A stretch of 64,000 nt of DNA from an uncultured Candidatus Saccharibacteria bacterium (GCA_964371255.1 CAYJKV010000002.1:66553-130552); one strand, 5' to 3'; shown: positions 3,162 through 38,513, counted from the first letter of the stretch. Numbers and translations: made by a program. Notes: generated from the letters alone by a model not told the origin.

Positions 3162-4601
3162 CTATATTTTCTTTTCTGACTCCAACTGAATATCCACCCG
3201 TCTTTCTATACGCGGTATTGATTTTACCCAAAAAGGCCAAAGTTTAATCTCCGTTGATCTAACTCCAGGCAGCCCTTCCAAATATTCACGAGCCTCTGTC
3301 ATTGAGCGGCCGGCTAGTTTTTGCCGCAACGTCTCCACCGCCAAGTTAGGCACGGTACTATGTGTGACTCGGACGGCAACGGTCGCCTGTGCCTCGTCCC
3401 AGTTTATGTCTTTAACACTAACAGTGAAAGAAATCGGCCCAGGAAACAGCATATAGTCCTTGTCTAACCGTCCCTCCAGTTTTTCCTTCATCCTCATTTC
3501 AAATAGCGCCTTTTCAAACCCAATCACCCGGACGACTATTTGTCCTTGGTAATCCATCGCCGGCACCTTATCCCCTTCTTGGCTGGTGCTGGTAAAATTC
3601 ACGACTTCCGTATTCCAACTTTCCTCCAATAATTCCCATCCTTCTGGTAACTCGTCCTTGATTTGCTGGGTCGCTTGTTGCCGGGCCTGATTCCCAGCTT
3701 CCTTGCTGGCCGCTGCCAGATCTTCTTTCCCTACCACCGCCACCGCTTCCCCACTTCCGCCGCTAAACGATTGCTTAGCTTCCGCCCAGACCACTTGTTG
3801 TGATGCTTCATCAAACGCCACGAAGTCAAGGCGCTGTCCCTCAATATTCCCCTCTTCCCCTTCCTCGGCAGCCAGCACTTCCACCGGGACTCGCCCGTTC
3901 GGTGGCACCATGGCATGCTTTTGCATATAAAACAGCCGGCCATCCTTAGTCTCCAGACGGCTTTGTTCCTTGATCTTTTGCTCGGTACCCGTGTTGTTCA
4001 CGATATCCACAACGCCGCTGCTTTTGCTGCCGATAATCTCACGATTTTGTACTTGCCAATTCCCCCGCACAGCAATTTCCCGATAAAAACTAGTCCCTGG
4101 AATGATTTGGTCGTTATTGTTGGCTTGGCCGATCAATACTTCCTCGTCAGCCAGCAAAGGTGCCGTTCTTAATTTAAGATCGATCGCCGCGGTCGGTAGA
4201 AAAATAATACTGGAGATCAAACCGGCAATCATTACTAAACCAATCAATCCCAACATAATCTTTCGCTCGGACTGTCCCATCCACACCCGCTGTTTCTTTG
4301 CCAAAGGTGCCGCGGCGAATAATGGTCGTCTTTCGGCTTGTGTCGCTTCCTCGGTTACTGTGCTAGGTTGGGCTAATTCCTCGGTCCTGATTTTTGCTAA
4401 AGGTACGCTTTTGCCGCTCAAGTCCATTGTCTTTTTATTTGGCGCACCGTCAGGGCCAACTCTACTGGCCGACTGCTTCAGCTTATCCTTGCTCGCCTGG
4501 CTGGCCTCAAATAATTCAATTTCTTCAACTTTGCCAATATCCAACGGCGGCAACCCGGTCTCGTTCTTATTGTCGCTGTTGCGCTTTATATCTCGCATCA
4601 T
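3162..4601 (-). CDS. hypothetical single-pass membrane protein (Lys/Glu-rich cytoplasmic N-region, one TM, large extracytoplasmic domain)
   Basis: 479 aa with a single hydrophobic helix LGLIGLVMIAGLISSIIFLP around residues 125-145. I recognise no catalytic motif. It occupies the position where secY-adk-map usually sit upstream of infA. Confidence 0.45.
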   Translation of the reverse strand: MMRDIKRNSDNKNETGLPPLDIGKVEEIELFEASQASKDKLKQSASRVGPDGAPNKKTMDLSGKSVPLAKIRTEELAQPSTVTEEATQAERRPLFAAAPLAKKQRVWMGQSERKIMLGLIGLVMIAGLISSIIFLPTAAIDLKLRTAPLLADEEVLIGQANNNDQIIPGTSFYREIAVRGNWQVQNREIIGSKSSGVVDIVNNTGTEQKIKEQSRLETKDGRLFYMQKHAMVPPNGRVPVEVLAAEEGEEGNIEGQRLDFVAFDEASQQVVWAEAKQSFSGGSGEAVAVVGKEDLAAASKEAGNQARQQATQQIKDELPEGWELLEESWNTEVVNFTSTSQEGDKVPAMDYQGQIVVRVIGFEKALFEMRMKEKLEGRLDKDYMLFPGPISFTVSVKDINWDEAQATVAVRVTHSTVPNLAVETLRQKLAGRSMTEAREYLEGLPGVRSTEIKLWPFWVKSIPRIERRVDIQLESEKKI

Positions 4602-4700: not shown

Positions 4701-6479
4701 TTATTCCAGGATAGCTTTAATCCGTCTGATGCCGGCTGCCGCTGCTTCTTCTTTTATGATCCTAAACTTCCCTAGCTCGCTGGTGTTACCGGCGTGGGGA
4801 CCGCCGCATATTTCCAGGGACACGTCACCTATTTTATAGACGCTTACATTTTTCTCGTATTTTTCTTTGAACAATCCCACCGCGCCCATAACTTTAGCCT
4901 GCTCTAAGGTTGTTTCTATCCGCTCGACCTTGATCTGATCGGCTATCGCTTGATTGATAAACTCCTCAATTCGCCTAATCTCGTCCGCATTTAATTTACG
5001 ATCGAAATTAAAATCAAAACGCAATCGCTCCGCTGTAATGTTACTGCCTTTTTGATTTATGTCTTGGCCCAGCAGTGTATGCAGCGCTGCATGCAGCAGG
5101 TGTGTCGCTGTGTGGTATTTTCTTGATTGCCGACTCTCATCGGTGAGTCCCCCTTTGAATTTATTGCTTGATCCGGCCCGGGACTTAGCTTGGTGTTCAG
5201 CGAATTGCCGTTGAAAGTCTTCGAGGTCCACTCCTTTGCCCACTTCACTTGCCAGTTCAGCGGTTAACTCCACTGGAAAACCGAAACTTTGTAATAGCAA
5301 CAAGGCGTCATTGCCGCTGATTTTATTCGGGCTTATTTTTTCAATTTCCTCGAACTTCTTCATTCCCCTGTTCAATGATCTCGCAAACTTAATAATTTCC
5401 TGTTCGACCGCAGCTTGCGCGGCCGGTAAATTGCTTCTCATTTGCGGGTAAACTGATTCGTACTCGTGCACCACTTTTCCCATACCTGTCACAAATAGAC
5501 TCGTTAAATCCTGCCCGCCCAGGCTTTGCGCCGTGACTACAGTCCGTCTAATCAAGCGCCGCAGCACGTACCCTTGCTCCGTATTGCTGGGAATAACATG
5601 GTTTTCATCAGTCATCACAAATGTCACCGCTTTTAGATGGTCAGCCATTATTCTTAATTTTTTTTCGTTCACCGCCGACCCTTGCCAATACTCGTCGCGT
5701 AACCACTTCATCAAGGGTCGGTATGTATCGATCTCATAAATACTATTAAAACCGCCCAGTGCCATCGCCGTCCGCTCCAATCCCATGCCGGTATCAACAT
5801 TCTTCTGCTGCAGTGGTGCTAACTTTCCCCCATTGCTCCGCGTATATTCCATAAAAACGTCATTCCATATTTCCACCCATTGCTTGTTGTTCGGGTCGAA
5901 CTGCTGGGGTGCGGCTGCTGTTCCCGTCCAATAAAACATTTCCGTATCGGGTCCCTGCGGACCACTTTCTTTGCCTCCCGCCGGCCACCAATTCTCCTCA
6001 CTATTCAAAAAAGCGATCCGTTCCTTAGGTAAGCCGACCTCTTCCCATTTCTTCGCCACTCTCTCATCTCGCGGTGCGTTCTCATCGCCGGCAAATACAC
6101 TTACCGCCAGCCTCTTGGGATCGATGCCCAGCCATTGATCGTCGGTTAAAAATTCCCAGCTTAATTTAATCGCTTCATCCTTGCCATAATCACCCAGCGA
6201 CCAATTACCCAGCATTTCAAACACCGTCGCGTGCGTCTCATCTCCCACCTCATCGATGTCGGTCGTTCGCAAGCATAGCTGGACATCTGTTAACCGACGG
6301 CCCTGGGGGTGTGTTTGGCCCTGCAAGTAGGGCACTAGCGGATGCATTCCGGCGGTCGTAAACAAAACAGACGGATCATTTTCCGGAAGCAAAGAACTGC
6401 CGGCAATCCGCTGATGACCGTGCTTTTCGAAAAATTCCTGATATTTCTCCCGCAGCTCTTGACTGCTTATTTCAATCAT
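4701..6479 (-). CDS. alaS: alanine--tRNA ligase, short form (catalytic, tRNA-recognition and editing domains; no C-Ala domain)
   Basis: Class II AlaRS N-terminus (FFEKHGHQRIAGSSLLPENDPSVLFTTAGMHPL), GNWSLGDY, and the editing-domain metal site HTATHLLHAALHTLLG...CGGPH. The most likely start is the ATG at 6479 (MIEISSQELREKYQEFF); the maximal ORF starts at 6521. About 592 aa against about 870 aa for typical bacterial AlaRS. Confidence 0.9.
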   Translation of the reverse strand: MIEISSQELREKYQEFFEKHGHQRIAGSSLLPENDPSVLFTTAGMHPLVPYLQGQTHPQGRRLTDVQLCLRTTDIDEVGDETHATVFEMLGNWSLGDYGKDEAIKLSWEFLTDDQWLGIDPKRLAVSVFAGDENAPRDERVAKKWEEVGLPKERIAFLNSEENWWPAGGKESGPQGPDTEMFYWTGTAAAPQQFDPNNKQWVEIWNDVFMEYTRSNGGKLAPLQQKNVDTGMGLERTAMALGGFNSIYEIDTYRPLMKWLRDEYWQGSAVNEKKLRIMADHLKAVTFVMTDENHVIPSNTEQGYVLRRLIRRTVVTAQSLGGQDLTSLFVTGMGKVVHEYESVYPQMRSNLPAAQAAVEQEIIKFARSLNRGMKKFEEIEKISPNKISGNDALLLLQSFGFPVELTAELASEVGKGVDLEDFQRQFAEHQAKSRAGSSNKFKGGLTDESRQSRKYHTATHLLHAALHTLLGQDINQKGSNITAERLRFDFNFDRKLNADEIRRIEEFINQAIADQIKVERIETTLEQAKVMGAVGLFKEKYEKNVSVYKIGDVSLEICGGPHAGNTSELGKFRIIKEEAAAAGIRRIKAILE

Positions 6480-6528
6480 AAACTTATCCTGCCACTGACT
6501 TATGGCGGCCGCAACCCTCACTCAGAGC

Positions 6529-7218
6529 TTAAAAGTATTTTCTTTCCTTTGACTTAAATACGATCTCGACCGCCTCAGCAGCGTTGTTCACTATGTTGTA
6601 CAAACCCAATTCGCTTTTATCAATGGTCTTATATTCTTGCACTAACACCTGTCTGATCCAACTGTCTAGCCCTTCCCAGTAATCATGCCCGACACAAATA
6701 ATCGGCACCGCTTCCATTTTTTGGGTTTGCACCAGGGTCACCATTTCAAAAAATTCGTCTAGTGTGCCGTATCCTCCGGGGAAAAAAATGTAAGCCTGGG
6801 CCGAGGCTGACAGCATAACTTTGCGTGTGAAAAAATAATGGAAGCCTATACCTTGCTGAACGTATTTATTCCGGCGTTGTGCGCTTGGCAGTTCAATATC
6901 AAGCCCCACAGATTGACCGCCCCCTTCTACTGCTCCTCGATTAGCCGCTTCCATTATGCCTGGCCCTCCGCCGGTAATAATCGTATAACCTTGTTCTCCC
7001 AGCATTTTCCCCATCATTCTCGCTTCTTCATACCAGGTTGAGCCAGGTTCCAATTGGGCCGATCCAAAAACTGTCACTTCCCGCCGCAGTGGATAAAGAA
7101 ACTCAAATCCATCCACAAACTCAGCCATAATGCGGAAGATTCGCCAATTCGCATCCTCCGCAAAATCAAAGGGCTTATCAATGGGGACTTTTTGCTTCAG
7201 CTTGGCAGTATCCTTCAT
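6529..7218 (-). CDS. LOG-family protein (cytokinin riboside 5'-monophosphate phosphoribohydrolase / TIGR00730 Rossmann-fold nucleotide-binding family)
   Basis: 229 aa with the LOG signatures TGGGPGIMEAANRGA and PGGYGTLDEFFE. Confidence 0.85.
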   Translation of the reverse strand: MKDTAKLKQKVPIDKPFDFAEDANWRIFRIMAEFVDGFEFLYPLRREVTVFGSAQLEPGSTWYEEARMMGKMLGEQGYTIITGGGPGIMEAANRGAVEGGGQSVGLDIELPSAQRRNKYVQQGIGFHYFFTRKVMLSASAQAYIFFPGGYGTLDEFFEMVTLVQTQKMEAVPIICVGHDYWEGLDSWIRQVLVQEYKTIDKSELGLYNIVNNAAEAVEIVFKSKERKYF

Positions 7219-7258: not shown

Positions 7259-8938
7259 TTACCTGATAGACGGTGGTCGCGGCCCCCCGCTAAATTTCTG
7301 CTTATTAGTGGCAGCCATATTTATTTTTCCGCCACCCTGCAATTTTCTGCTCTCCTCCTGCCTCTCCGTCTTAAGTTTCTCGTAACACTCCCGGCAATAA
7401 ACCGGCTGTCCCGCCTTGGGCTCAAACGGCACGTCCGTATCTCGTCCACAACGATCGCATTTCACATGCACTAATCTCGGTTTTAATAAACTGGCCAGAT
7501 CGGTGATTTCCTCTGTGCTTTTTTCTACCCGCATCTCCTGTAATACTTTTTCCGCCTGGCTGGGTGCCGGCAACATCGGCTTATCTTCCCGCCGCGACTG
7601 TGTTTGCCTGCCTCGTGGTTGATTACCGGCTGTGCGATGGTCGGCCGCAGCATTGAAAACAACTCCGCTCCATCGTGCGATCTTATCCTCCACGATCGCC
7701 CGCGGTCGTCCGTACCGTTCCCGGGAGACGTTTATTACAGTTTCCTTCTTATCAAATCCTTCTCGACTGGGCGCAACAGTTTGCATGCTGAAAGCCTTAC
7801 TCGTGACGCCGTCAATCATTAACTTGATATAGGCATTGTACTTATCCAAGTTGACCAAATCGGTTTCCATGAATGTTGGCGCGAATTCTTTCTCCAAGAA
7901 CTCCGCGTCAGCCGCGCCTACCCTGAAACAAACTATCGTACCGGCGTTGCCAAAAACTGCGCCGCGTACCATTTCATCCTCCATCTGTTCAATATACTGG
8001 TGGGCCATTGTCAGATTTAACCGGTATTTACGCGCCTCCGATAAAATGCTGGCAAATGATTCGGTAGCAAAATTTTGGAACTCATCGACATACAAATAAA
8101 AATCCTTCCGCTGCGCTTCCGGTATTTTAGCCCGGTCCATGGCGGCTAATTGCAGGCGCGTTATGAGCATGGCTCCTAATAATGATGAATTATCTTCTCC
8201 GATCCTTCCCTTACTGGCATTGATCAGCAATATCTTTTGGTTATCCATCACATCTGTCATATCGATCGTGCTTTTGGGTTGAGCGACAATATTGCGGATA
8301 ATCGACGACGTTAAAAATTGCCCCACCTTATTCTGGATCGGTGAAATCGCTTCCGCTCTAAACCGTTCATTGTAATTGGAAAATTCGTTGAGCCAAAAAG
8401 ATTTGACGACCGGATCTTGAATCTTTTCCACGACTTTTTTACGGTATTGATTATCCCCTAACATCCGCAAAATTCCCAGCATAGTGCTCGCGGGATAATC
8501 CAGCAGAGCTAAAATCGTATTTCTTAAAATGTATTCCAGCCGCGGCCCCCAGGAGTCTGCCCAGATTTTCTTCAATGATCCAATTAAACCAGACGAAACT
8601 AAGTATTTATATTGCGGATCAACCGCCTCCAGTACGTTGAAACCGACCGGATATTCCACGTCCGATGGATCAAAATAAATCACGTCGTTGATTCGTTCCG
8701 GCGGGATGAAATCAAGTAAGCCCTCAGCCATATCCCCGTGTGGATCAACTAAGGCCACGCCTTTACCCCGCATAATATCCTGTTTGATCATCCCTTCCAT
8801 TAACGTTGTTTTTCCAACACCCGTTTTCCCAATGATGTATACATGCCGTCGTCGGTCATCGCTATAAATCCCAAACTGCCGTTCCTGTCCCCGGAACTTG
8901 GTCACCCCCATTACGGTTATGTCGCTGTCGTCTGCCAT
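7259..8938 (-). CDS. P-loop ATPase resembling type IV secretion coupling proteins (VirD4/TraG/TraD-like), with a C-terminal zinc ribbon
   Basis: 559 aa. Walker A is YIIGKTGVGKTTL followed by VALVDPHGD. Walker B is FYLYVDEFQNF, and an arginine-finger-like segment ARKYRLNLTMAHQ follows. The C-terminus carries CDRCGRDTD...VYCRECYEK (CxxC-N17-CxxC). The family is assigned from motif layout only; the ATG at 8938 was checked. Confidence 0.5.
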   Translation of the reverse strand: MADDSDITVMGVTKFRGQERQFGIYSDDRRRHVYIIGKTGVGKTTLMEGMIKQDIMRGKGVALVDPHGDMAEGLLDFIPPERINDVIYFDPSDVEYPVGFNVLEAVDPQYKYLVSSGLIGSLKKIWADSWGPRLEYILRNTILALLDYPASTMLGILRMLGDNQYRKKVVEKIQDPVVKSFWLNEFSNYNERFRAEAISPIQNKVGQFLTSSIIRNIVAQPKSTIDMTDVMDNQKILLINASKGRIGEDNSSLLGAMLITRLQLAAMDRAKIPEAQRKDFYLYVDEFQNFATESFASILSEARKYRLNLTMAHQYIEQMEDEMVRGAVFGNAGTIVCFRVGAADAEFLEKEFAPTFMETDLVNLDKYNAYIKLMIDGVTSKAFSMQTVAPSREGFDKKETVINVSRERYGRPRAIVEDKIARWSGVVFNAAADHRTAGNQPRGRQTQSRREDKPMLPAPSQAEKVLQEMRVEKSTEEITDLASLLKPRLVHVKCDRCGRDTDVPFEPKAGQPVYCRECYEKLKTERQEESRKLQGGGKINMAATNKQKFSGGPRPPSIR

Positions 8939-8968
8939 AGAATTATTTGCAATTAAAGGTCGTCAATA

Positions 8969-10393
8969 TTATACGTATGGCACATTCTCTGGTGCTCCGC
9001 CGACACCCGCTTTAGCACGTTCAAAAGCTGGCGCCTTTGAGTACTTGGTGGGGAAGTGGTAAAGCGTGGCTAGCTCTTCGTCACTCATCATATAACCGTC
9101 TTCATAACCCCAAAAATCACGCCATTGAAAAGACAAAAATATTTCTCTCTTTCGTCTATATCGGCGTGTCTTCTTCATCACGTAATTTGGCCCGTTAGTT
9201 TTTGTGTTCGGATCGGGCTTAAAACTGTTGAGATTATATGTATTAAATTGCTTAAAACCGCCAATCGCTCTGGAAATATTAGGCTTAGTAAGCTGGCCCA
9301 AGGGCGCTAAATAAAGCACGCGTATTTTTACCCGGTATCCGCCCTTTGATACTTTCCTCAATATCCCATCCATTTTGGCTGTGTCGCCCGCACTCACCTT
9401 GGGAAAGTCCAGGCTTGTTTTTCCCGCGGCTTTGCCAGCTTCTAAGGGTCCGCTGACACCGGCCTTGATCGCGTCTGCTGGGAATTGGGTCATCGCTTCC
9501 ATGGATTTACTCAACAGGCCTCGGGTTTTTTTTGTCTCTTTACCCGCTAACTTATCAATTTCTTCGCCGCCCTTATCCGCCCATTTCCTAATATCTTTAC
9601 CGTCGATCGGCCTGATTAATATTTGCACCCAAAATTGTTCACCCTCGTTGATATTAGTATACGCTTCCACTAAGGCTTGGTGCGGATCGATAAACTTCTC
9701 TTCCTCAGCGAAGACATCCTCGTAATCATGATAAGTCTTCACCGGATAAACATCATCTTCGGTCAATGCGATCTCCGAACCATACAGATCAAAAGTCTTA
9801 TCAATGTCTTTGTAATCATAAATCTGGGTATAATCTTGCGTTTCTACTACCTCTGCTTCTGGATATTGTCCGTACACAACACCTTCAAAAAACGTTTTGT
9901 GCATAGTCGGCACCACTAAGATATACCGAGCGCGCCCTTTTGTGCAGACTAATTCACAGCTGTACCAGGCTTCCAAATATCCTTCAAAATATCTTTCGAC
10001 TAAATCAGGGTTTTTATGAATGCCGTCAAGGACTGAGAAAATATTCTCCATTGCCTTCGGCGTTTGTTCTGAATCCTCTGGTACTGTTACTTGCAAGAAC
10101 GTCCAGCTGATCGCCGATACATAATCAACCATCTTAATATACAAATATATTTTCCAGATTACCCAGAGCATTAAACCCACCACCACCAGCCAGCCCCAAC
10201 TGAAAATGATATTGGTGCCGGCTTCTAGGTTAGATATTAAGCTGGCGGCCATCATGCCTGTGGGGTTTATATTAACTCGATGCCTGTGCATGACTCTATT
10301 ATACGTAAAGGTCAGGTTATCGGCGAACCTTACTGGCAACGTACCCCCAGCTTTTGCCAGACCTGTCCCGGGCCCCAACCCTGAATACCACAA
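8969..10393 (-). CDS. hypothetical membrane protein (N-terminal TM helix, highly acidic middle region, basic C-terminus); likely partner of the upstream ATPase
   Basis: 474 aa as the maximal ORF, which starts with TTG. More plausible starts are the ATG at 10291 (preceded by TATAAT) or the ATG at 10255 (MMAASLISNLEAG). TM segment IIFSWGWLVVVGLMLWVIWKIYLYI; acidic stretch DYKDIDKTFDLYGSEIALTEDDVYPVKTYHDYEDVFAEEEKF; basic tail KKTRRYRRKRE. No family recognised. It is 30 nt from the ATPase gene. Confidence 0.45.
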   Translation of the reverse strand: MWYSGLGPGTGLAKAGGTLPVRFADNLTFTYNRVMHRHRVNINPTGMMAASLISNLEAGTNIIFSWGWLVVVGLMLWVIWKIYLYIKMVDYVSAISWTFLQVTVPEDSEQTPKAMENIFSVLDGIHKNPDLVERYFEGYLEAWYSCELVCTKGRARYILVVPTMHKTFFEGVVYGQYPEAEVVETQDYTQIYDYKDIDKTFDLYGSEIALTEDDVYPVKTYHDYEDVFAEEEKFIDPHQALVEAYTNINEGEQFWVQILIRPIDGKDIRKWADKGGEEIDKLAGKETKKTRGLLSKSMEAMTQFPADAIKAGVSGPLEAGKAAGKTSLDFPKVSAGDTAKMDGILRKVSKGGYRVKIRVLYLAPLGQLTKPNISRAIGGFKQFNTYNLNSFKPDPNTKTNGPNYVMKKTRRYRRKREIFLSFQWRDFWGYEDGYMMSDEELATLYHFPTKYSKAPAFERAKAGVGGAPENVPYV

Positions 10394-10423
10394 GCAGCCT
10401 TAGCTAATTGCTTAAGGCTGCTT
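10392..10423. promoter_or_regulatory. perfect 11-bp inverted repeat (AAGCAGCCTTA-N10-TAAGGCTGCTT) between the HTH gene stop and the membrane-protein start
   Basis: Seen directly. It lies 29 nt after the stop at 10452 and overlaps the TTG of the maximal downstream ORF. It is T-rich on the plus-strand side only, so it is a stem-loop of unclear function (attenuator, RNA stabiliser or weak terminator). Confidence 0.3.
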
Positions 10424-10451
10424 AGAATAATGATTTATTTTTGCTGCTCTT

Positions 10452-11528
10452 TTACTTAGTCTCTGGTGTGCTGATATTCCTCAACGTGTACCGATCGTCT
10501 TCCACCTTCGCAAATTTATTACTATTTTGCAGGCCGAGAACGACGGTCGTTCGCTTCACCATGCGCTGTTTCATCACTTCCGCTAACAGCTCATCTTTCT
10601 TCATCGGTTTACCAGACTTGCTCAAAATTGCTTCCAGGACATCTGCGACCGTACCGGGCAAAAAGCCCCAATCGCTTAACCCATACATGCCTCTTCCCAC
10701 CAACACAAAGCGCGGATCTTTTATTAGTTCATTATGCACCGTCTGTTCATGAGCCTTCTTGTGGTCAAATTTCACTTCATTAATTTGCGCGGCGATATCT
10801 CGAAAATGCATTGGTTCACCGTTGCGGCGCAGAACAATATAAGCCTTGTCTCCAACCCCTCGGGGTGATGTTTCTACCCAATCCTTTAGTCCCCACTCGC
10901 TGAAAACTGTCCGCTTTAGTTCTTTGCTAGCTTCTAGCAGGGCTTTCACGCAAGCATCAGGTAGAACTTCTTCTGATACGCCGACTTGTTCTCTGATCTT
11001 CATTAACATCTCATTCTCCATGATTGGCTTTTTTGCCTTGCGCAAAATATTATCTGCCGCATTGACTACTTGGTCGGCATAAGTGTGATGTAACTTGGGG
11101 TGAGACCAATGCGGGCGAAATTTGTCGGAACGGGTCACGCGTTCATAATTTGGCAAAATATCCAAGAAGAACATCACCATGGTTGCTCCTGGCGCCTCGG
11201 TGAAACTCTGACCGACAACTAACATCAAATAATCCTCTGTTAGTATCCCCCCATACTGAGCAAACAGCGCTTCTAAGGTTTTAGCTACATTTTTTAACAC
11301 ATCTTCGCGTCGGGCCAGTAGCTTCTTAGCCTGTGCCTCAATCTGTCGCACCCTTTCCCGCGTGATGCCATATTCTTTGCCTATGCTGTCCAATGTTTCG
11401 ATTTGCCCTGACTCTAAACCGTAACGACGCTTAATAATATCCTGCGATCTGGTATCTAAAATGCCTAAAAGAACTCTCACTATTTCGTTGAGTTCACCTG
11501 CTTTGCTTATTGTTCTTTCTTGCTCCAT
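10452..11528 (-). CDS. sigma-70 region-4-like HTH protein fused to a C-terminal HARE-HTH domain
   Basis: 358 aa. The N-terminus, SQDIIKRRYGLESGQIETLDSIGKEYGITRERVRQIEAQAKKLL, matches the sigma-70 region 4 consensus (L..RE..VL.LRYGL......TLEEIG...GVTRERIRQIE..AL.KL). The C-terminus, KAYIVLRRNGEPMHFRDIAAQINE...KAHEQTVHNELIKDPRFVLVGRGMYGLSDWG, matches the HARE-HTH fold seen in RpoE/delta and in restriction enzymes. Sigma regions 2 and 3 are absent. Confidence 0.6.
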   Translation of the reverse strand: MEQERTISKAGELNEIVRVLLGILDTRSQDIIKRRYGLESGQIETLDSIGKEYGITRERVRQIEAQAKKLLARREDVLKNVAKTLEALFAQYGGILTEDYLMLVVGQSFTEAPGATMVMFFLDILPNYERVTRSDKFRPHWSHPKLHHTYADQVVNAADNILRKAKKPIMENEMLMKIREQVGVSEEVLPDACVKALLEASKELKRTVFSEWGLKDWVETSPRGVGDKAYIVLRRNGEPMHFRDIAAQINEVKFDHKKAHEQTVHNELIKDPRFVLVGRGMYGLSDWGFLPGTVADVLEAILSKSGKPMKKDELLAEVMKQRMVKRTTVVLGLQNSNKFAKVEDDRYTLRNISTPETK

Positions 11529-11588: not shown

Positions 11589-11617
11589 AATATAGACCTT
11601 TCTTGACCATATGTCAA
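11589..11617 (-). promoter_or_regulatory. sigma-70-like promoter (TTGACA-N17-TATATT) for the HTH-fusion gene
   Basis: The minus strand reads cTTGACAtatggtcaagaaaggtcTATATTgcaag. The -35 is the reverse complement of 11612..11617 and the -10 is the reverse complement of 11589..11594, with a 17-nt spacer. It lies about 55-60 nt upstream of the ATG at 11528. The -35 sits inside the palindrome CTTGAC-N5-GTCAAG (11602..11618). Confidence 0.4.
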
Positions 11618-11718: not shown

Positions 11719-13026
11719 TTATTTGGGACGCAATATAGTGCGCAACATCCCGTCTAAGTCCCCTGCGCTAAAAGCAATGGCTATTCCGAAAGATCCGGCC
11801 GCTTTCGTTAAGACATTATTCATGGCCTCGCCCTTTTTAACCTCTGCAATAAATATATTGTCCTTCTGCCAGCCGTTAATTAAATCAGTTTTTAGCTGCC
11901 CGGCCTGTGCGTCTGTATTTTCTCTTCCGCGCGGCATAAAAATTGGCGTTAGAATCACCCCGTCAGCTTTCCTAAAGGCACTAAGAAATTCCGGCAGGAA
12001 ATTTCGCAATCTTTCTTGCGTATGCGGTTCAAAGATTGCCACGATCCTTTGTTGTGGATATTTTTCTCTGGCCGCTTCCAACGTACGGGCAATCTCCGTC
12101 GGGTGATGGCCATAATCGCTGATTACTTCCATGCCTTGCCAGTCTCCCAATCTTTCAAACCTGCGTTTGATGCCGGTGTATGAGGCCAGATAGCCCGCCA
12201 GCTTTTGTTCCTCAGCGCCGGCCCAGCCTGCTATCCGCATGGCGATTAAGCCGTTCGTCTTCATATGTTGCCCGGGTGTACTTACCTGTACCTGGCTAGC
12301 CTCTTGTTCATCTAATACAATCGTATTGGCCGGCCATTCTACGGTCGGATGGTTTTGTTGTATGCCTTTCAATGTCATCACTACCCCAGCTTGTTTTCTA
12401 TGCCTGATAAACTTGCTATACGCTTCCTCTGTTTGTTCGAGCGAATTAAAAAAGTCCGGGTGGTCGAAGTCAATCGATGTGATAGCTATCAAGTCAGGCC
12501 TTAATGTTAAAAAATGTTCCCGGTACTCATCAGCCTCGAGCACTAAAATGTCGTTCGCGCCCATTCGCGCGTGTCTGCCTCCCCATTCCCGCATCGCTGC
12601 GCCAATCAACACAGTCGGATCGAGTCCCGCCGCAATCATAATATGCGCTGCCATGGCACAGGTTGATGATTTACCGTGCGTTCCGGTAACGGCGACCACG
12701 CGCTTGAAGCCTTTGGCAAAATTGCCGACTGCCGCCTGGTAATTTATTTCGCGCTTCAGATCACGGGCTGCCTGTCGCAGCCTGTGCTCTTGGTCGACCG
12801 CGTCTGAAAAAATCACCTCCGTAAAACCGCTCATTTGCTGTTTGAATTTTTCCTCATCAACCAGTTTGAACGGTTCGTCCTTCAGTAATTCCTTGGTCTC
12901 TTCAAGCTTGGCATCAGTGCCCACGACGTCTAAATCCTGCTGGCTTAATAGATATGCCAACCCGCGCATGCCGCTGCCGCCGATACCCACCATTCCCACT
13001 TTTTTCTGGCTTTGGCCCAACCTCAT
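11719..13026 (-). CDS. murC: UDP-N-acetylmuramate--L-alanine ligase
   Basis: 435 aa with VGIGGSGMRGLA, the Mur-ligase P-loop AVTGTHGKSST, and DYGHHPTE (the DYAHNP-type motif of MurC/MurD). Confidence 0.92.
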   Translation of the reverse strand: MRLGQSQKKVGMVGIGGSGMRGLAYLLSQQDLDVVGTDAKLEETKELLKDEPFKLVDEEKFKQQMSGFTEVIFSDAVDQEHRLRQAARDLKREINYQAAVGNFAKGFKRVVAVTGTHGKSSTCAMAAHIMIAAGLDPTVLIGAAMREWGGRHARMGANDILVLEADEYREHFLTLRPDLIAITSIDFDHPDFFNSLEQTEEAYSKFIRHRKQAGVVMTLKGIQQNHPTVEWPANTIVLDEQEASQVQVSTPGQHMKTNGLIAMRIAGWAGAEEQKLAGYLASYTGIKRRFERLGDWQGMEVISDYGHHPTEIARTLEAAREKYPQQRIVAIFEPHTQERLRNFLPEFLSAFRKADGVILTPIFMPRGRENTDAQAGQLKTDLINGWQKDNIFIAEVKKGEAMNNVLTKAAGSFGIAIAFSAGDLDGMLRTILRPK

Positions 13027-28101: not shown

Positions 28102-28590
28102 TCAGCTATAAGACATGGTTGCTAAAACAGCTTCGTGTCGCGTCCTTAGTCCATTTTCTCTTTCGGCAATGCTAACCAGCCAGTCTCTGCGTAACTCCTC
28201 AATTAATGCGGCCTGTACTGCGCTATTTTCATCTTGTAGAGCAAACAGCAATTCACCGTACGTCTGGATTAATCCGGGAAGCGCTATGGATAATTTGCAT
28301 CCTTCGCCGTGTTGGTCGTGACATCTTAATATCGTCCTCGCTACCAACTTTATCGCACTAACTTCCGGCCAATAAAAAATCATCATTCCTTTACCGCACC
28401 GGCAATATCCAACATTGCGTAGCTTATTATTGGGCATAGGTTCCAATGGATCCCAGCCAACAGTCGAGAATAATTCCGGGTTGGCTTCCTTATTACCTCC
28501 TGGCAACAACACTCCGCCTTGTTTTCCTACCAAAATAAAGGGAATGATCACCTTTCGCATTGCGTGTCTCCTAATAATAGAAAGAACCAC
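28102..28590 (-). CDS. hypothetical protein (Cys/His-rich; no recognised family)
   Basis: 162 aa as the maximal ORF; the start is probably the MRKV ATG at 28560. Contains CRCGKG and CHDQHGEGC. It sits antisense to the flanking operons. Confidence 0.3.
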   Translation of the reverse strand: MVLSIIRRHAMRKVIIPFILVGKQGGVLLPGGNKEANPELFSTVGWDPLEPMPNNKLRNVGYCRCGKGMMIFYWPEVSAIKLVARTILRCHDQHGEGCKLSIALPGLIQTYGELLFALQDENSAVQAALIEELRRDWLVSIAERENGLRTRHEAVLATMSYS

Positions 28591-29756: not shown

Positions 29757-32396
29757 TTAAAGCTCACGGATAAGTTTCAGCAAAGTGGCAACTCGGTTAT
29801 CCCAGTCGTGCGGCTCTGCTGCCTTGATTCTTTCCCGGCCGCCTGCCTCAGGTGCTCGATATGCTCTTCGAATACCATTTATAAAATCACGCTCGTTTTT
29901 GGCATAATTAATTAAATTGACGTATTCTCTCAGCTCGGGTAACCCCGTGACAACAATTGGCTTGCCCGTCGCCATAAACTCCCAGAACTTTAAGGGAAAA
30001 CTCGCTGCGTTGTATTTATTGGCGCGATAAGGAATAACGCATACATCAAAACAGTGGACAAATTGAGGCACCTGCGCTGGCGGTATTGTCCCCAGTAAAC
30101 TAACATTCTGAAGGCTCGCTAACTTTTTTAAAAGCTTCTTTTTTCTATCGATAATCGGTGAGCCGATAAACACAAAACTCCAGTCAGGCTGTGCCTGTGC
30201 TGCCCGATACAATAGCTCAAAATCCACCTTATATTCGTCCAGCGCCCCCACTGATCCAATAATTGGTTTCTGGAGCTTGGCCAACTCCTTAGGACATTGG
30301 CTCTCTGGCCGGCTGAATAATTTTGTGTTGCCGGCATTGAGCACTAATTTCACGTTGCGCCCTTTTTTGCTTTTACTATGAAAGAGACGTTTTGACGTCA
30401 CGCAAATTAGATCGGCCCGCTGCATAATCCTCTCTTCTTCCTCCTTTACCCGTGTCGGGTTTCTGTCTACGCCTGCTTGCGCCGCGTGGTCGTCTACACA
30501 ATCATAGATGACTTTGTCACCCTTGAAGGCGGATAAATATTCGGCTGCTTCAGTATCGTATACCCACATTATTCTCTCTCCTCGCTTGAATTTAAGCAGC
30601 GTCGCTATGTTTAAAACATTATAGCGGTTCAGTAGATGATTAAACCTGGCGACTGCACCCAGCTCCCTTGATCCAGGGATTAAATTAAACTGTGCCTTGA
30701 TATACAGGTTGTCATTTATTCGCTGGTACCAGAACAATCGCTTGCCATAAGACCAGATTCTTCCCGGCCTGCCTAAATTTTTCCCAATATATTTAACTAT
30801 CCACACCCGAGGTTCAACATACAGAACTGGTATATGGCAGCTAATTCTTGACATCACGTTTTGTCGGTTGGTCCATGTATTCGCGCCGTATTCAGCGCCG
30901 GCAAAACAAACAATTGTGTTCCTTACAGGCATTTTCCCTCTCCTGACCTCCCTCCGGCCCATTAAGGCTAACTCTTTGACGCCTGGTATCAGACGGCTCT
31001 TTCTGGCTTCGAACCAGACAAATCCTCCCAATAAAATAAACGCCATCAATCGCCATCCGAAAGGTGGATCAAAAAATAACCAACAAAAACTTACGGCTAG
31101 TAATAACAGAAACAGTAGCAATTGCCTTGTGAGTACACTGACGCCAAACTTTGTCTTGGCGATCGTCACCATCAGCGCGTAAGACAGCAATACGCCCCCT
31201 AACACGGCCCAGGCTGATAACAAAGGGTCTGGTTTCACAAATAGTAAACCGGTCATAATCACCCCTGTCACGCTGGTCATTAACAGGTATGTGTAAGCCC
31301 GTAATTTTGGGGCATCGGCTGGCACGAACACGCTGCTAGTCCCAATGTCGACTAACGTATAGAGGAAAAAGCCAAGGGTCATCACCAGGATTATCTTATG
31401 CGCTGCCAGATATTCTGCGCCGATTACATATTGTAAAATTTCTGGTGTGAAAAATAGCAGCAGCAACGCAATTCCCATCATCAACACCAATACCCGCTGC
31501 ATGTTACGAGTGACTACTTGGGCGAATTCGCCCCTTTGCTTCGTATAGAGGGAACTCATCCAGGCCAGATTCACCTCAGATAAGGCCATTGCTATTATCG
31601 TCATCTTCGAACCGAAAGTTTGTGATACATTCAAATAGCCCAGCTGTTCAGCCGATAGCACGCCACCTAACATGAGAATCGGCAAGCGCTGCCATAATAT
31701 AAAGAATATTCTGGCTGCGTACATATAAGCGCCAATACGCATCACGCGCCAGCCATATTTTTTTACGTCCGACCAGCTAGGCAACGCGAGATTCTGTTTC
31801 AACGCTCGGGTAATCAGCCAGAACAACAAAATAATCATTAGGGTGGTGGTTAACACAATTGCCCAAAAGAAACCAGCGACGCCAAATTTCCAAGCCATAT
31901 AGCCAAACACCGCCACGTTAATTGCTGCCGTCACAATTTGCACTACATAAAGTTCAATGAACTTCTTCATGCCAGTCAGCGTCGCGCCCATTACGTCCTG
32001 TAAGCCTTGCAACACTAACACGCCAGCGAACACTTCTAAAAAAGTTTCAATCTCGGGACGTCCGTATACTCGGCCGGCAATTAAACCTGCCAACAACAGC
32101 AATCCTACTGATAAGGGGATAGTTACGATTTGTCTAACCAGATGCGACACCCAAAATACCTTGCCAACCTCGCGGTTATTTTCTAAGACCGCGATCTCTC
32201 TGATCGCGCCATCGACAATCCCTAAATGCTGCGATACACCAATCACACCGCCAATTGACATCACTAATCCCACCAAGCCATATTCAGCCGGCGAAAATAT
32301 CCGAATAATTATAATGCTTTGTATGATGCCCAGCGCGGTTGTTACCGTCTTGGCTCCGATTGATATCGCTTGAATTCTACCCAGTTTGAACGGCAT
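29757..32396 (-). CDS. fusion protein: N-terminal Wzx-like polysaccharide-biosynthesis membrane domain (MOP superfamily, ~470 aa) and C-terminal GT-B glycosyltransferase domain
   Basis: 879 aa. Residues 1-~470 are polytopic (12-14 predicted helices) with the PST-family layout. Residues ~480-879 are soluble, with a GT4-like nucleotide-sugar-binding motif (FPLKFWEFMATGKPIVVTGLPEL). Confidence 0.6.
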   Translation of the reverse strand: MPFKLGRIQAISIGAKTVTTALGIIQSIIIIRIFSPAEYGLVGLVMSIGGVIGVSQHLGIVDGAIREIAVLENNREVGKVFWVSHLVRQIVTIPLSVGLLLLAGLIAGRVYGRPEIETFLEVFAGVLVLQGLQDVMGATLTGMKKFIELYVVQIVTAAINVAVFGYMAWKFGVAGFFWAIVLTTTLMIILLFWLITRALKQNLALPSWSDVKKYGWRVMRIGAYMYAARIFFILWQRLPILMLGGVLSAEQLGYLNVSQTFGSKMTIIAMALSEVNLAWMSSLYTKQRGEFAQVVTRNMQRVLVLMMGIALLLLFFTPEILQYVIGAEYLAAHKIILVMTLGFFLYTLVDIGTSSVFVPADAPKLRAYTYLLMTSVTGVIMTGLLFVKPDPLLSAWAVLGGVLLSYALMVTIAKTKFGVSVLTRQLLLFLLLLAVSFCWLFFDPPFGWRLMAFILLGGFVWFEARKSRLIPGVKELALMGRREVRRGKMPVRNTIVCFAGAEYGANTWTNRQNVMSRISCHIPVLYVEPRVWIVKYIGKNLGRPGRIWSYGKRLFWYQRINDNLYIKAQFNLIPGSRELGAVARFNHLLNRYNVLNIATLLKFKRGERIMWVYDTEAAEYLSAFKGDKVIYDCVDDHAAQAGVDRNPTRVKEEEERIMQRADLICVTSKRLFHSKSKKGRNVKLVLNAGNTKLFSRPESQCPKELAKLQKPIIGSVGALDEYKVDFELLYRAAQAQPDWSFVFIGSPIIDRKKKLLKKLASLQNVSLLGTIPPAQVPQFVHCFDVCVIPYRANKYNAASFPLKFWEFMATGKPIVVTGLPELREYVNLINYAKNERDFINGIRRAYRAPEAGGRERIKAAEPHDWDNRVATLLKLIREL

Positions 32397-37856: not shown

Positions 37857-38513
37857 TCTTCCGATGGCGCCGGATCGTCCCGCATCAATTTCTCTGCGAT
37901 ATGATGGCAACGCCAGCATTTCATACGTGCATCGTCCGTCATAGTTAATTTTGTTGGGATGAATTTCCCACTCATCAAAAAAATATTGTAGCGCAGTTTT
38001 GAGTGATAAATAAATGGATCCATGGTGCCAATGTGTCGCCCGGCCGAACCGCAATCGGAACCGGCGCAGCATCAAACTCTCATGCGAATAAGTATTATGG
38101 AATTCACAGATATGCGGTCCCACATAAATGTTATCAATTTCTTTTGGTTCCAGATAATTTAGCGCATTATCCAACAGGCCGTTTACTATCGTTTTTCTGC
38201 TGACATGCAATGCCAGCACTTTCTCTTCCGTCATTATTATTACCGGTGCGCAATCTGCCGTATCAATGCCGATCACCCGGTCATCATCGATAGATAGATA
38301 AATTCCATCTGCTTCTGTCTCGCTAGTTATATGTGCCGCCCGCACGATATTGCCGCCGTGTGTCTGGTTAACTTTGACTATTTGATCGTCTGTTGTTTGG
38401 TCATTTATTTCTGATACGATCCATCGTCCGAATGTTTTACCTTCAGTTTGTTTTGGCTCCCGAGCCACTTGTTTTATAAATGGCGAGGTCCCCATTGTGA
38501 AATACTTTTTCAT
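37821..38513 (-). CDS. PgeF/YfiH-family protein (DUF152 multicopper-oxidase-like; peptidoglycan editing factor family)
   Basis: 230 aa with VNQTHGGNI, ADG and TADCAPV motifs of the YfiH family. The 3' end overlaps the convergent GT4 gene by 36 nt. Confidence 0.65.
   Translation of the reverse strand: MKKYFTMGTSPFIKQVAREPKQTEGKTFGRWIVSEINDQTTDDQIVKVNQTHGGNIVRAAHITSETEADGIYLSIDDDRVIGIDTADCAPVIIMTEEKVLALHVSRKTIVNGLLDNALNYLEPKEIDNIYVGPHICEFHNTYSHESLMLRRFRLRFGRATHWHHGSIYLSLKTALQYFFDEWEIHPNKINYDGRCTYEMLALPSYRREIDAGRSGAIGRLVTTVRHRILA

Follow-up and report, generated by a model that had tools for sequence, protein, structure and literature searches.

A Probable Split Type IV Coupling Protein, Linked to a Sigma-Region-4/HARE-HTH Gene, in Patescibacterial Chromosomes

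Introduction

What might an ATPase resembling the coupling proteins of conjugation do among housekeeping genes? The question is raised by a locus within a 64,000-nucleotide stretch of DNA from an uncultured Candidatus Saccharibacteria bacterium (hereafter the window), where a gene for a P-loop ATPase follows one for a membrane protein of the DUF8128 family (Table 1). An earlier note on this DNA had described the two as a module of their own.

Organization of the Locus

Both open reading frames of the earlier note were recovered on the minus strand with the boundaries it had assigned. The pair it had recognized is borne out as a pair, but not as a two-gene module: a 358-aa protein containing sigma region 4 and HARE-HTH domains is encoded immediately upstream, giving a three-gene unit in the order sigma/HARE, DUF8128, ATPase. 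The placement of the module between the LOG/alaS genes and the mur cluster likewise stands except for direct adjacency to the latter, where the sigma/HARE gene intervenes; murC, murG, ftsW, murD, and mraY lie near the module. All genes of the window are housekeeping or cell-envelope genes, and the GC content of the module is uniform with that of its flanks. As had been claimed, the 49 ORFs scanned in the window include no member of a relaxase, VirB4, pilin, or integrase family, and the ATPase gene has no relaxase or mating-pair-formation (VirB4, VirB6) gene linked to it within these 64 kb. The scanned ORFs were drawn from 54 listed at a length of at least 150 aa, the five others lying inside, or largely overlapping, annotated genes on the opposite strand.

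Table 1. Features of the three-gene unit, in window coordinates
Feature	Position	Strand	Basis
Candidate promoter: best sigma-70-like match, TTGACA-17-TATATT, ~60 nt upstream of the sigma/HARE gene	11589..11617	-	consensus, 11 of 12 matches
Sigma/HARE protein, 358 aa: sigma-70 region 4 (aa 21-67), HARE-HTH/RNAP-delta-like (aa 228-287), conserved C-terminal domain (aa ~290-350)	10452..11528	-	
Spacer between sigma/HARE and DUF8128 genes: 13-bp stem-loop just after the stop codon; TATAAT 7 nt before ATG 10291	10292..10451	-	
DUF8128 (PF26449) subunit, 440 aa from ATG 10291; probable N-terminal half of a split coupling protein	8969..10291	-	
Single transmembrane helix, aa ~28-46, predicted N-out/C-in	10154..10210	-	K/R bias, model, natural fusion
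Signature EELATLYHFP near the DUF8128 C-terminus, just ahead of where fused homologues run on into the ATPase	9050..9079	-	
In-frame spacer between the two halves, 30 nt, two stop codons (TAA, TGA)	8939..8968	-	
T4CP-type ATPase subunit, 559 aa, no transmembrane segment	7259..8938	-	profile and fold matches
All-alpha insertion, aa ~108-232, between Walker A and Walker B	8243..8617	-	model, hhalign, Pfam
Walker A GKTGVGKTT, aa 37-45	8804..8830	-	invariant columns in ATPase alignment
Walker B YLYVDEFQNF, aa 281-290	8069..8098	-	invariant columns in ATPase alignment
C-terminal CxxC-x17-CxxC treble-clef zinc ribbon, aa 490-522	7373..7471	-	PF23477, TIGR04272

The domains of the sigma/HARE protein are recognized by Pfam (Sigma70_r4, 45.1 bits; HARE-HTH, 56.9 bits) and by the RNA polymerase (RNAP) delta model TIGR04567 (59.9 bits; cut-off 42), and conserved motifs are visible in its alignment. 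Its overall architecture nevertheless differs from that of RNAP delta, which consists of an N-terminal HARE-HTH domain and an acidic tail, and only region 4 of sigma is present, full sigma models scoring 25-56 bits against cut-offs of 240-800. Sigma region 4 and the delta-like HARE-HTH are RNAP-binding modules in known contexts, so the neighbor may act as a regulator or RNAP factor and need not be a DNA adaptor. With regard to transcription of the unit, the best sigma-70-like match upstream of this gene is a candidate promoter for all three genes on the basis of sequence, promoter-like sites occurring in the region at chance level (nine found, 8.5 expected). The spacer preceding the DUF8128 gene has an overall z-score of only -1.7, and the scan calls neither a terminator nor a promoter within it; the TATAAT that had been thought to hint at a separate promoter is present, but lacks a usable -35 element.

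A Motor of the Coupling Protein Class

The product of the last gene had been described as a VirD4/TraG-like P-loop ATPase with Walker A, Walker B, and a terminal pair of CxxC motifs, a description that its motifs and the Pfam and NCBIfam searches uphold. Pfam models scoring above their curated cut-offs are TrwB_AAD_bind (34.6 bits, spanning aa 28-321), DUF87 (35.0), TraG-D_C (28.1), and T4SS-DNA_transf, and the PDB sequence matches are to TrwB and DotL only. In profile comparison (hhalign) the ATPase aligns with TrwB over 262 columns (prob 97.2, E 2.9e-11) that span the P-loop, the all-alpha domain, and Walker B, whereas the match to VirB4 is limited to the P-loop. Residues 108-232 are modeled as helices only, and this insertion corresponds to the all-alpha domain of T4CPs. 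A Foldseek search with the predicted structure returns DotL first (E 1.7e-10) and TrwB (TM 0.55-0.59 on target), both ranking above HerA, Cagbeta, and VirB4. By HMM, profile, and fold the closest relatives are thus translocating coupling proteins, and a non-translocating family is not favored. The curated NCBIfam T4CP families (TraD, CD1115 VirD4-like) gave only 41-50 bits against cut-offs of 250-647.

Only 36 aa precede the P-loop and the protein has no hydrophobic segment, such that the N-terminal transmembrane domain is absent from the ATPase polypeptide itself; a helix is provided in trans by DUF8128. At the other end a disordered linker (aa 430-481) leads to the zinc ribbon, in which CDRCGRDTDVPFEPKAGQPVYCREC occupies aa 494-518. 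The ribbon is identified by PF23477 (zf_Tbcl_2; 52.3 bits, cut-off 27) and TIGR04272 (NCBIfam CxxC-x17-CxxC; 53 bits, cut-off 36), and this region of the predicted model has a pLDDT of 85-92. Of the 66 complete orthologues 33 share this ribbon, and either a zinc ribbon or a basic tail is found in half of the ATPase orthologues.

The DUF8128 Partner and its Fused Relatives

Membership of the upstream subunit in PF26449 is a precomputed assignment, made for a 100%-identical cluster (P0001) and for nearly all homologues; the family comprises 1,496 representatives at 50% identity. Read from TTG 10393 the ORF would encode 474 aa, but homologues measure 415-448 aa and cannot be aligned with it at the N-terminus, which makes ATG 10291 the likely start. 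The single transmembrane helix, acidic middle, and basic tail that had been noted were all recovered: residues 61-250 have a pI of 4.3 (39 D/E vs. 17 K/R), and residues 301-440, the C-terminal third, a pI of 10.0. The predicted model (AF2; pLDDT 84, pTM 0.79) contains a long N-terminal helix at aa 13-60. In 118 of 135 family members K/R residues are more common after the transmembrane helix than before it, and the existence of natural fusions to a cytoplasmic ATPase likewise puts this domain on the cytosolic side; under this predicted topology the cytoplasmic domain would comprise about 380 aa. A P-loop-like string, AGKAAGKT, also occurs in this protein and was dismissed as fortuitous, being non-conserved and situated in a low-confidence loop.

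The DUF8128 model is structurally closest to gp156 of Bacillus phage G and to phage JL (E 1e-16, TMq 0.50-0.54). Against the PDB the sole fold recovered by Foldseek is that of TrwK, the VirB4 of R388, which accounts for all of the top nine matches (E 1.4e-4 to 4.8e-2, prob 0.6-1.0, TM-scores of only 0.30-0.39); hhalign comparisons with TrwK, pSK41 TrsE, TrsD, and a TcpF-like VirB4 gave no signal. Judged from the model, the DUF8128 fold may weakly resemble the VirB4 N-terminal domain, and no other PDB fold.

The relationship between the two subunits becomes apparent from homologues in which they form one chain. An 883-aa protein of a S. clausii plasmid matches the DUF8128 profile at aa 41-313 (prob 99.2, E 2.9e-19) and the ATPase profile at aa 326-726 (prob 99.9, E 6e-32). 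A 904-aa Bacillus plasmid protein likewise contains DUF8128 followed by the ATPase, as does phrog_5156 (positions 80-311 and 407-805). A further fused ORF, of 956 aa, has surroundings of the Patescibacterial type and is preceded by a Sigma70_r4 gene. The plasmid and phage proteins are collinear with the window pair and share with it an EELATxxHFP-type motif, the P-loop, the all-alpha domain, and Walker B; the EELATLYHFP columns, invariant or nearly so in DUF8128 alignments, align with EEMAAIMRLP of the plasmid proteins. In Bacillus and Shouchella the fused gene, annotated as a "DUF87 domain-containing protein," is followed immediately by a relaxase-family gene within a Tcp-like transfer module, in the order DUF87 protein, Replic_Relax, TcpC, TcpE, ATP-binding protein. 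The relatives differ from the present system in being single polypeptides without an N-terminal transmembrane helix, in being borne by plasmids (beside Replic_Relax and TcpC/TcpE/TcpF-like genes) or phages and not by a chromosome, and in having no sigma/HARE neighbor; no zinc ribbon was seen in them, and identity to the window proteins is only 22-27%.

The two stop codons between the halves indicate that the split is real in this genome, and the lack of a membrane helix in the Firmicutes fused proteins suggests that membrane tethering was acquired in Patescibacteria and is not general to the family. On the sequence comparisons, the DUF8128 partner is best taken as the detached N-terminal half of a T4CP subfamily that occurs as a single chain on Firmicutes plasmids and phages, and not as a new kind of accessory protein. 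The two genes together very probably represent one split T4CP-type ATPase of the VirD4/TrwB class.

Conservation among Patescibacteria

The pairing is conserved well beyond the window. Gene order was compared in 80 genomes or loci from many Patescibacterial lineages, 79 of them evaluable for ATPase adjacency. The ATPase gene lies directly downstream of DUF8128 on the same strand in 71 of the 79, with a median gap of 16.5 nt, and across classes its product is 46-68% identical (71 loci). The pairing is far beyond chance, and fused forms exist besides. Among Patescibacteria the split falls at the linker, and the chromosomal pair is very widespread, strongly conserved, and located apart from relaxase and VirB4 genes. 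The most conserved neighbor of the pair is the sigma/HARE gene, found at position -1 of DUF8128 in 69/80 loci, often with gaps of 0-8 nt; in approximately 10% of loci sigma/HARE and DUF8128 occur together and the ATPase is not adjacent. Other recurrent neighbors include SecDF, tRNA synthetases, and LOG. SecD/SecF are upstream in 41-43 of the 80 loci, so part of the synteny may reflect inherited gene order rather than functional coupling. With respect to whether the partner belongs to a larger mobile element, the genomic setting described above argues otherwise, and no relative was found in IMG/VR (2.9 million contigs).

T4CP homologues have been reported in 2,918 of 3,035 Patescibacterial genomes, a count that may not correspond to the DUF8128-paired family, and only 148 of 5,713 such homologues are near virB4 (PMC12102498). 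Since T4CP homologues located apart from virB4 are already on record in Patescibacteria (PMC12102498), the ATPase itself is not new.

Probable Function and Alternatives

The account favored here, with somewhat more confidence than doubt, is that of a chromosomal, vertically inherited, membrane-tethered two-subunit T4CP that was exapted from monoderm conjugation and probably translocates DNA. A coupling protein of conjugation would thereby have been recruited to a core cellular role, and the "minimal DNA/protein translocation or uptake device" of the earlier note may describe it. That the pair is specifically a membrane-tethered DNA translocase is proposed tentatively, as a prospect falling a little short of an even chance. 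In such a mechanism DUF8128 would hold the ATPase against the membrane on its cytoplasmic side and aid ring assembly. The all-alpha domain, the basic tail or zinc ribbon, and the sigma/HARE protein would engage a nucleic-acid substrate, most likely DNA, and ATP hydrolysis would drive the substrate into, or draw it out of, a membrane channel whose genes lie elsewhere, with the Patescibacterial T4SS and the competence channel as candidates. T4CPs move proteins as well as DNA.

An unlikely alternative is that the Patescibacterial T4SS uses this as its regular coupling protein, encoded apart from virB4 and recruiting protein effectors, not DNA, for delivery to a host cell. T4CPs do serve effector-translocating T4SSs, with DotL and Cagbeta among the structural matches; the Patescibacterial T4SS lacks relaxases and its role is thought to be non-conjugative (PMC12102498; PMC10633639), and T4CP genes are often far from virB4 (PMC12102498). 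However, T4CP homologues occur in more genomes than VirB4 does (2,918 vs. 2,417; PMC12102498), and in one Tn-seq study of Ca. Southlakia epibionticum a T4CP homologue, which may not be the orthologue of the window ATPase, was non-essential where T4SS genes were essential (PMC12102498). In addition, the conserved neighbor is of a nucleic-acid-binding type, a zinc ribbon or basic tail is carried by half of the orthologues, and no effector-type gene is linked. An FtsK/SpoIIIE-like motor that clears or segregates septal DNA during cell division, which would explain the proximity of mur genes and ftsW, is very unlikely. Conservation at a housekeeping level, membrane tethering, and an ATPase superfamily common to FtsK all suit such a role, but murC adjacency is limited to the Andersenbacteria-like loci (L001-L005), the module elsewhere neighboring SecDF, tRNA synthetases, or MltG-like genes. 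The ATPase has no match to Pfam FtsK_SpoIIIE or FtsK_gamma at E<0.01, FtsK structures are absent from its top 50 fold matches, its fold and profile are closest to T4CPs, and FtsK is already named for Saccharibacteria in the literature (from term counts only).

The domains of the sigma/HARE protein, both RNAP-contacting in known contexts, and the tight linkage of its gene could also point to a transcription-linked unit, in which this protein would bind RNAP and the ATPase would target RNAP-DNA complexes or transcription at the membrane. Such a unit is highly improbable: no T4CP-class ATPase is known to act on RNAP, on plasmids this ATPase family operates alongside relaxases, and HARE-HTH is found in DNA-modification and restriction contexts as well (Pfam description). 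Finally, relatives on plasmids and in Bacillus phages, together with a PADLOC match of the ATPase to mad8 (3e-20, 71 bits) and a weak one to HerA, might suggest the degenerate remains of a conjugative element or phage, or an anti-phage defense ATPase of the HerA or MADS kind, instead of a working cellular system. This is scarcely credible, as all catalytic motifs are intact and invariant, the position and three-gene order are fixed across classes, GC content matches the flanks, and IMG/VR holds no relative. The mad8 match concerns the ATPase alone, its neighbors having no defense hit of any kind in the PADLOC search; no SIR2, DUF4297, NurA, or mad partner was found in the window, and no other MADS, defense, integrase, or transposase gene lies near the module there.

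Relation to Known Systems

VirD4/TrwB-type proteins (TrwB of R388, DotL, and Cagbeta) provide the best profile and fold matches of the ATPase and have the same nucleotide-binding domain with an all-alpha insertion. Canonical members possess their own two-helix N-terminal transmembrane domain and linkage to a relaxase or T4SS, and lack a DUF8128 domain and zinc ribbon; in each respect the opposite holds here. A functional precedent for DNA uptake is offered by CedD and CedB. In the Sulfolobales, DNA import requires CedD, in which an ATPase is combined with a transmembrane segment and a VirB4-like N-terminal domain (PMC11868833). The likeness lies in a membrane segment and VirB4-NTD-like domain coupled to an ATPase of the FtsK-HerA superfamily, encoded chromosomally and without a relaxase; the Ced ATPases are nonetheless single polypeptides of the HerA/VirB4 clade, whereas the present one is of the T4CP clade and divided between two genes, and the NCBIfam CedD model matches it in the P-loop region alone, at 30 bits where the cut-off is 600. 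It is conceivable, if quite unlikely, that DUF8128 and the T4CP retain an ancestral architecture of N-terminal domain plus motor, as in VirB4 and CedB/CedD, turned in Patescibacteria into a near-universal housekeeping motor for DNA import or DNA handling, guided by the sigma/HARE protein. Without any link to conjugation, such a motor would feed these nucleotide-auxotrophic cells, or would take the part of a ComFA-type motor in their natural competence.

Recruitment of a soluble coupling ATPase to the membrane by the product of another gene is also known from plasmid pIP501, in which TraJ, a T4CP without a transmembrane domain, works with the membrane protein TraI (PMC7434980). The partners of this subgroup are described only as "small membrane proteins," and the multi-helix "TraJ-like" proteins of ~200 residues belong to another subgroup, the TraG-J pairs (PMC7434980). 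The partner here is 440 aa long and corresponds to a domain within the ATPase polypeptide of its relatives. TrsK, the T4CP of pSK41, matches the ATPase profile weakly (prob 20).

A Coupling-Protein ATPase Without a Transmembrane Domain

The ATPase passes the Pfam cut-offs for TrwB_AAD_bind, DUF87, TraG-D_C and zf_Tbcl_2, and also that of the NCBIfam model for the CxxC-x17-CxxC domain. An earlier note, made from the sequence, had described a VirD4/TraG-like ATPase with both Walker motifs and a terminal CxxC...CxxC ribbon; all of these are present, with the catalytic residues intact, and both the HMM search and the fold search place the protein in the class that the note had named. In the PDB its sequence relatives are TrwB and DotL only. 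TrwB of R388 aligns to a profile of 54 ATPase orthologues over 262 columns (probability 97.2, E 2.9e-11), spanning the P-loop, the all-alpha domain and Walker B; for VirB4 of R388 the P-loop alone is aligned (probability 16). In the AlphaFold model (pLDDT 74) an insertion made up of helices only (aa 108-232) separates the two Walker motifs; residues 430-481 form a disordered linker, and the small zinc ribbon is confidently predicted. Foldseek ranks DotL and TrwB first (TM 0.55-0.59 on target), with HerA, DndH-C, Cagbeta and VirB4 far behind. From these matches in sequence, profile and modelled fold, the ATPase can therefore be classed as a coupling protein (T4CP) of the VirD4/TrwB type that lacks a transmembrane (TM) domain. 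It reaches none of the curated NCBIfam T4CP cut-offs and thus belongs to no named equivalog. The zinc ribbon occurs in 33 of 66 orthologues, while other orthologues carry basic tails, and relatives are found on plasmids of Streptomyces, Staphylococcus, Sulfolobus and haloarchaea.

The ATPase also matches the PADLOC model mad8 of the MADS defence system (71 bits, aa 9-372), which suggests that mad8, too, branched off from this T4CP-like lineage. In two homologous loci a second, diverged T4CP-like paralogue directly follows the first (L018:5704-6900 and L061:8361-9608; 49% and 40% identity to the window ATPase, respectively), in keeping with the roughly two T4CP homologues that genomes are reported to carry on average.

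The DUF8128 Partner

Counted from a TTG codon, the partner ORF comprises 474 aa; homologues measure 415-448 aa and have unalignable N-termini, so that the ATG at 10291 (440 aa) is the likely start. The traits noted earlier (440-470 aa, one TM helix, an acidic middle and a basic tail) were all recovered, with a pI of 4.3 for aa 61-250 and of 10.0 for the C-terminal third. Pfam family PF26449 (DUF8128) is assigned to the identical protein cluster and to nearly all partner homologues, the assignment coming from precomputed matches (the older Pfam copy searched directly lacks this model). The family numbers 1,496 representatives at 50% identity (E<=1e-3) and has the signature EELATLYHFP near its C-terminus. 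Lysine and arginine residues following the TM helix outnumber those preceding it in 118 of 135 members, and the globular part is accordingly predicted to be cytoplasmic. The structural model (pLDDT 84, pTM 0.79) consists of a long N-terminal helix followed by alpha/beta domains. A P-loop-like AGKAAGKT was rejected as an ATP site, as it is not conserved and the loop containing it is disordered. Searching PDB sequences with the DUF8128 profile gave no meaningful match, and a literature search on DUF8128/PF26449 found no paper.

Fold matches of the partner model in the PDB are confined to TrwK/VirB4 of R388, the nine best extending over some 440-460 aligned columns (E 1.4e-4 to 4.8e-2) at TM-scores of only 0.30-0.39. 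Comparisons of the DUF8128 profile by hhalign with TrwK, TrsD and TrsE of pSK41 and a TcpF-like VirB4 were all negative, and Pfam searches of 56 members at E<10 lent no support to a VirB4 N-terminal domain or TrsD relationship. A resemblance between DUF8128 and the VirB4 N-terminal domain is an open lead suggested by models. What gives it interest is the Sulfolobales DNA import system, whose CedB and CedD likewise join a VirB4-NTD-like domain to a TM segment and a superfamily ATPase (PMC11868833). DUF8128 may thus offer a structural connection between the N-terminal architectures of T4CPs and VirB4.

One Protein in Two Genes

Four independent lines agree that the DUF8128 partner and the ATPase are one protein in two pieces. 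With the partner as query, a tblastn search of plasmids found a match within a Shouchella clausii plasmid protein of 883 aa, annotated as "DUF87 domain-containing protein". Its aa 41-313 align with the profile of DUF8128 (probability 99.2, E 2.9e-19), EEMAAIMRLP standing opposite the family motif, and its aa 326-726 with that of the ATPase (probability 99.9, E 6e-32). The same two-part match is seen in a 904-aa protein from a Bacillus plasmid. Among phages, the PHROG family phrog_5156 (824 positions, function unknown) aligns with the partner at 80-311 and with the ATPase at 407-805, and the best structural matches to the partner model are Bacillus phage G gp156 and proteins of phages JL and Slash (E 1e-16 to 4e-14). 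On one Patescibacteria-type contig a fused 956-aa protein (DUF8128 + TrwB_AAD_bind; P0313/L087), whose ORF is genuine in its assembly, stands directly behind a Sigma70_r4 gene. In the window the two ORFs share a frame and lie 30 nt apart with two stop codons between them, and the point of division coincides exactly with the linker.

In both plasmids a Replic_Relax (replication-relaxation) gene comes immediately after the fused gene, and TcpC-like and TcpE-like genes and a gene for a large ATP-binding protein follow in the 3' direction; the position of the fused gene is that of the coupling protein in a monoderm transfer module. The fused plasmid proteins lack a TM helix, whereas the Patescibacterial partner has one. 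The membrane anchor is therefore an addition in Patescibacteria, and DUF8128 an integral domain of this T4CP subfamily rather than a mere anchor.

An apparent 1,016-aa fusion in another homologous locus (L070, 5464-8515) is spurious, produced by a stretch of masked N that spans the junction between DUF8128 and the ATPase, and serves as a caution for automated fusion calls in the genome collection. On pFDU301A of Priestia megaterium, a 1.08-Mb replicon listed without annotation, a 534-aa ORF contains a stretch resembling DUF8128 (L083, 692121-692996; 25% identity across 70% of the partner, E 6e-11).

Gene Order and the Third Gene

Features of the module and its surroundings, in order of transcription for the minus-strand genes from mraY to rpoA
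Feature	Position	Strand	Remark
mraY, murD, ftsW, murG		-
murC	11719-13026	-
TTGACA-17-TATATT	11617-11589	-	best sigma-70-like site; only strong one; upstream of third gene
sigma70_r4/HARE-HTH gene	10452-11528	-	third gene, 358 aa
Stem-loop, 13 bp	10390-10424	-	in 160-nt spacer
DUF8128 gene	8969-10291	-	partner, 440 aa
ATPase gene	7259-8938	-	559 aa
Walker A GKTGVGKTT	ATPase aa 37-45	-	ORF translation
Walker B YLYVDEFQNF	ATPase aa 281-290	-	ORF translation
CxxC-x17-CxxC	ATPase aa 494-518	-	ORF translation
LOG-family gene	6529-7218	-
AlaRS gene	4701-6521	-	short, 606 aa
Membrane protein gene	3162-4601	-	479 aa, one TM helix
S4, RpoA genes		-
Flippase-GT4 fusion	29757-32396		879 aa
ORF without Pfam match	28102-28590	-	162 aa
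ORF without Pfam match	38443-40290	-	615 aa
ORF without Pfam match	46317-46916	+	199 aa
ORF without Pfam match	46913-48382	+	489 aa
ORF without Pfam match	50013-51101	+	362 aa

The earlier note had placed a two-gene module between the LOG/alaS genes and the mur cluster. The LOG/alaS side holds; on the other side the pair does not abut the mur cluster, as a 358-aa gene that had been overlooked intervenes before murC. Its product carries sigma-70 region 4 (aa 21-67) and a HARE-HTH domain (aa 228-287) that passes the cut-off of the RNAP-delta model. Conserved blocks read TLExIGxxYGITRERVRQIE, PLHF..IA..IN and QTVHNELIKDxRFVLVGRGxYAL, the last being followed by a further conserved C-terminal domain. 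Both modules bind DNA and/or RNA polymerase in known settings, and the product could be a DNA adaptor, an operon regulator or an RNAP factor. Their presence in one protein is an unusual pairing, on which a HARE-HTH/sigma literature search found nothing relevant.

The hint that the partner has its own promoter found no support: the TATAAT before the ATG at 10291 lacks a -35 element and was not called in the promoter scan. Counts of sigma-70-like sites in the region are no better than in shuffles. The spacer contains a perfect stem-loop (AAGCAGCCUUAAGC...GCUAAGGCUGCUU) directly after the sigma/HARE stop codon; it has no T-run, the scan did not call it a terminator, and the z-score of the spacer as a whole reaches only -1.7.

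Conservation Across Patescibacteria

A pattern scan with one genome per species yielded at least 581 confirmed loci, 80 of which were kept for analysis; they include Andersen-, Terry-, Portnoy-, Buchanan-, Lipton-, Moran-, Magasanik-, Doudna-, Uhr-, Niyogi-, Sung-, Colwell- and Yanofskybacteria, among others, some "Gammaproteobacteria" and "Saccharibacteria" titles in the scanned records being apparently placeholder labels. The pairing is retained: the ATPase gene lies 3' of the DUF8128 gene, in the same orientation, in 71 of 79 evaluable loci (median gap 16.5 nt), and the sigma-r4/HARE-HTH gene is immediately 5' of DUF8128 in 69 of 80, frequently separated from it by 0-8 nt. In eight loci the sigma/HARE and DUF8128 genes are followed by a different gene, MltG-like in four. 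LOG, alaS and murC are neighbours in Andersenbacteria-like loci only. Identity across lineages is 46-68% for the ATPase and 27-63% for DUF8128. A scan of the IMG/VR viral collection returned no relative.

Farther upstream, at positions -2/-3 relative to DUF8128, SecD/SecF are found in 41-43 of the 80 loci (L009, L015, L025 and about 40 others). The resulting five-gene block secD-secF-sigma/HARE-DUF8128-T4CP, present in many lineages, is absent from the window; the linkage may reflect functional coupling or inherited gene order.

T4CP homologues have been reported in 2,918 of 3,035 Patescibacterial genomes, versus 2,417 for VirB4, and only 148 of 5,713 such homologues lie near virB4; the authors mention exaptation as a possibility (PMC12102498). 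These counts would include the DUF8128-linked ATPase family.

Possible Function and Significance

The ATPase is very probably a T4CP-type enzyme split over two genes; that the whole acts as a membrane-tethered DNA translocase is a tentative reading, though the leading one. DUF8128 would anchor the ATPase to the membrane on its inner side and aid ring assembly; a subgroup of T4CPs that lack a TM domain and have separate membrane proteins as partners is already recognised (PMC7434980). A nucleic-acid substrate may be bound by the all-alpha domain, by the tail or zinc ribbon and by the sigma/HARE protein, and ATP hydrolysis would move it to or from a channel encoded elsewhere.

The earlier observation that conjugation genes are lacking nearby was borne out, with no relaxase, VirB4, pilin, integrase or transposase family in any of the 49 ORFs scanned in the 64-kb window. 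Coupling of protein effectors to the type IV secretion system is unlikely. An FtsK-like part in division is a weaker candidate still, a role linked to RNAP seems improbable, and a remnant or a defence system is hardly to be expected. Patescibacteria (CPR) make up a large share of bacterial diversity; their genomes are tiny, and 3 kb retained by almost all lineages should therefore do something important.

Earlier work had already recorded this class of ATPase, the DUF and how abundant "orphan" T4CPs are in Patescibacteria; the literature searched gave no account of a partner protein for these T4CPs, of the split or of a linked DNA-binding gene. New relative to it are DUF8128 as the detached N-terminal half of a coupling protein, single-chain plasmid and phage relatives adjoining relaxase-family genes, the TM helix gained by DUF8128, and the conserved sigma-r4/HARE-HTH partner. 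A Pfam DUF is thereby assigned a role, as the coupling protein's missing half, and together with the single-chain Firmicutes plasmid form and the sigma-r4/HARE-HTH companion it constitutes a testable unit for genetics in cultivable Saccharibacteria.

Surroundings of the Module

The window resembles Patescibacterial chromosomal DNA of the Candidatus Andersenbacteria type, this being the name on the closest homologues of both the ATPase and the DUF8128 protein. GC content is even across the window (0.45-0.51), and tRNA and Rfam searches of it gave 0 matches. All 2-kb bins have a negative GC skew (-0.11 to -0.28; 1-64000) and the cumulative curve is monotonic, placing the whole window on one replichore without origin or terminus. 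Typical bacterial AlaRS is much longer than the 606 aa encoded here (566 aa in the homologous locus L041); the protein apparently ends after the editing domain, so that the C-terminal C-Ala domain appears to be absent. The membrane protein encoded between AlaRS and the ribosomal/RpoA genes has a borderline Baseplate_J match (21.6 bits against a cut-off of 21.1). Positions 14000-64000 form a very large cell-envelope glycan region, in which five ORFs have no Pfam match at E<1e-4. It encodes at least 15 glycosyltransferases (GT2, GT4, GT9), two MurJ/Wzx-type flippases, Wzy_C, YfhO, FemAB, polysaccharide deacetylases, SpoIID and a RimK-like ATP-grasp protein, and includes a protein in which a flippase is fused to a GT4 domain.
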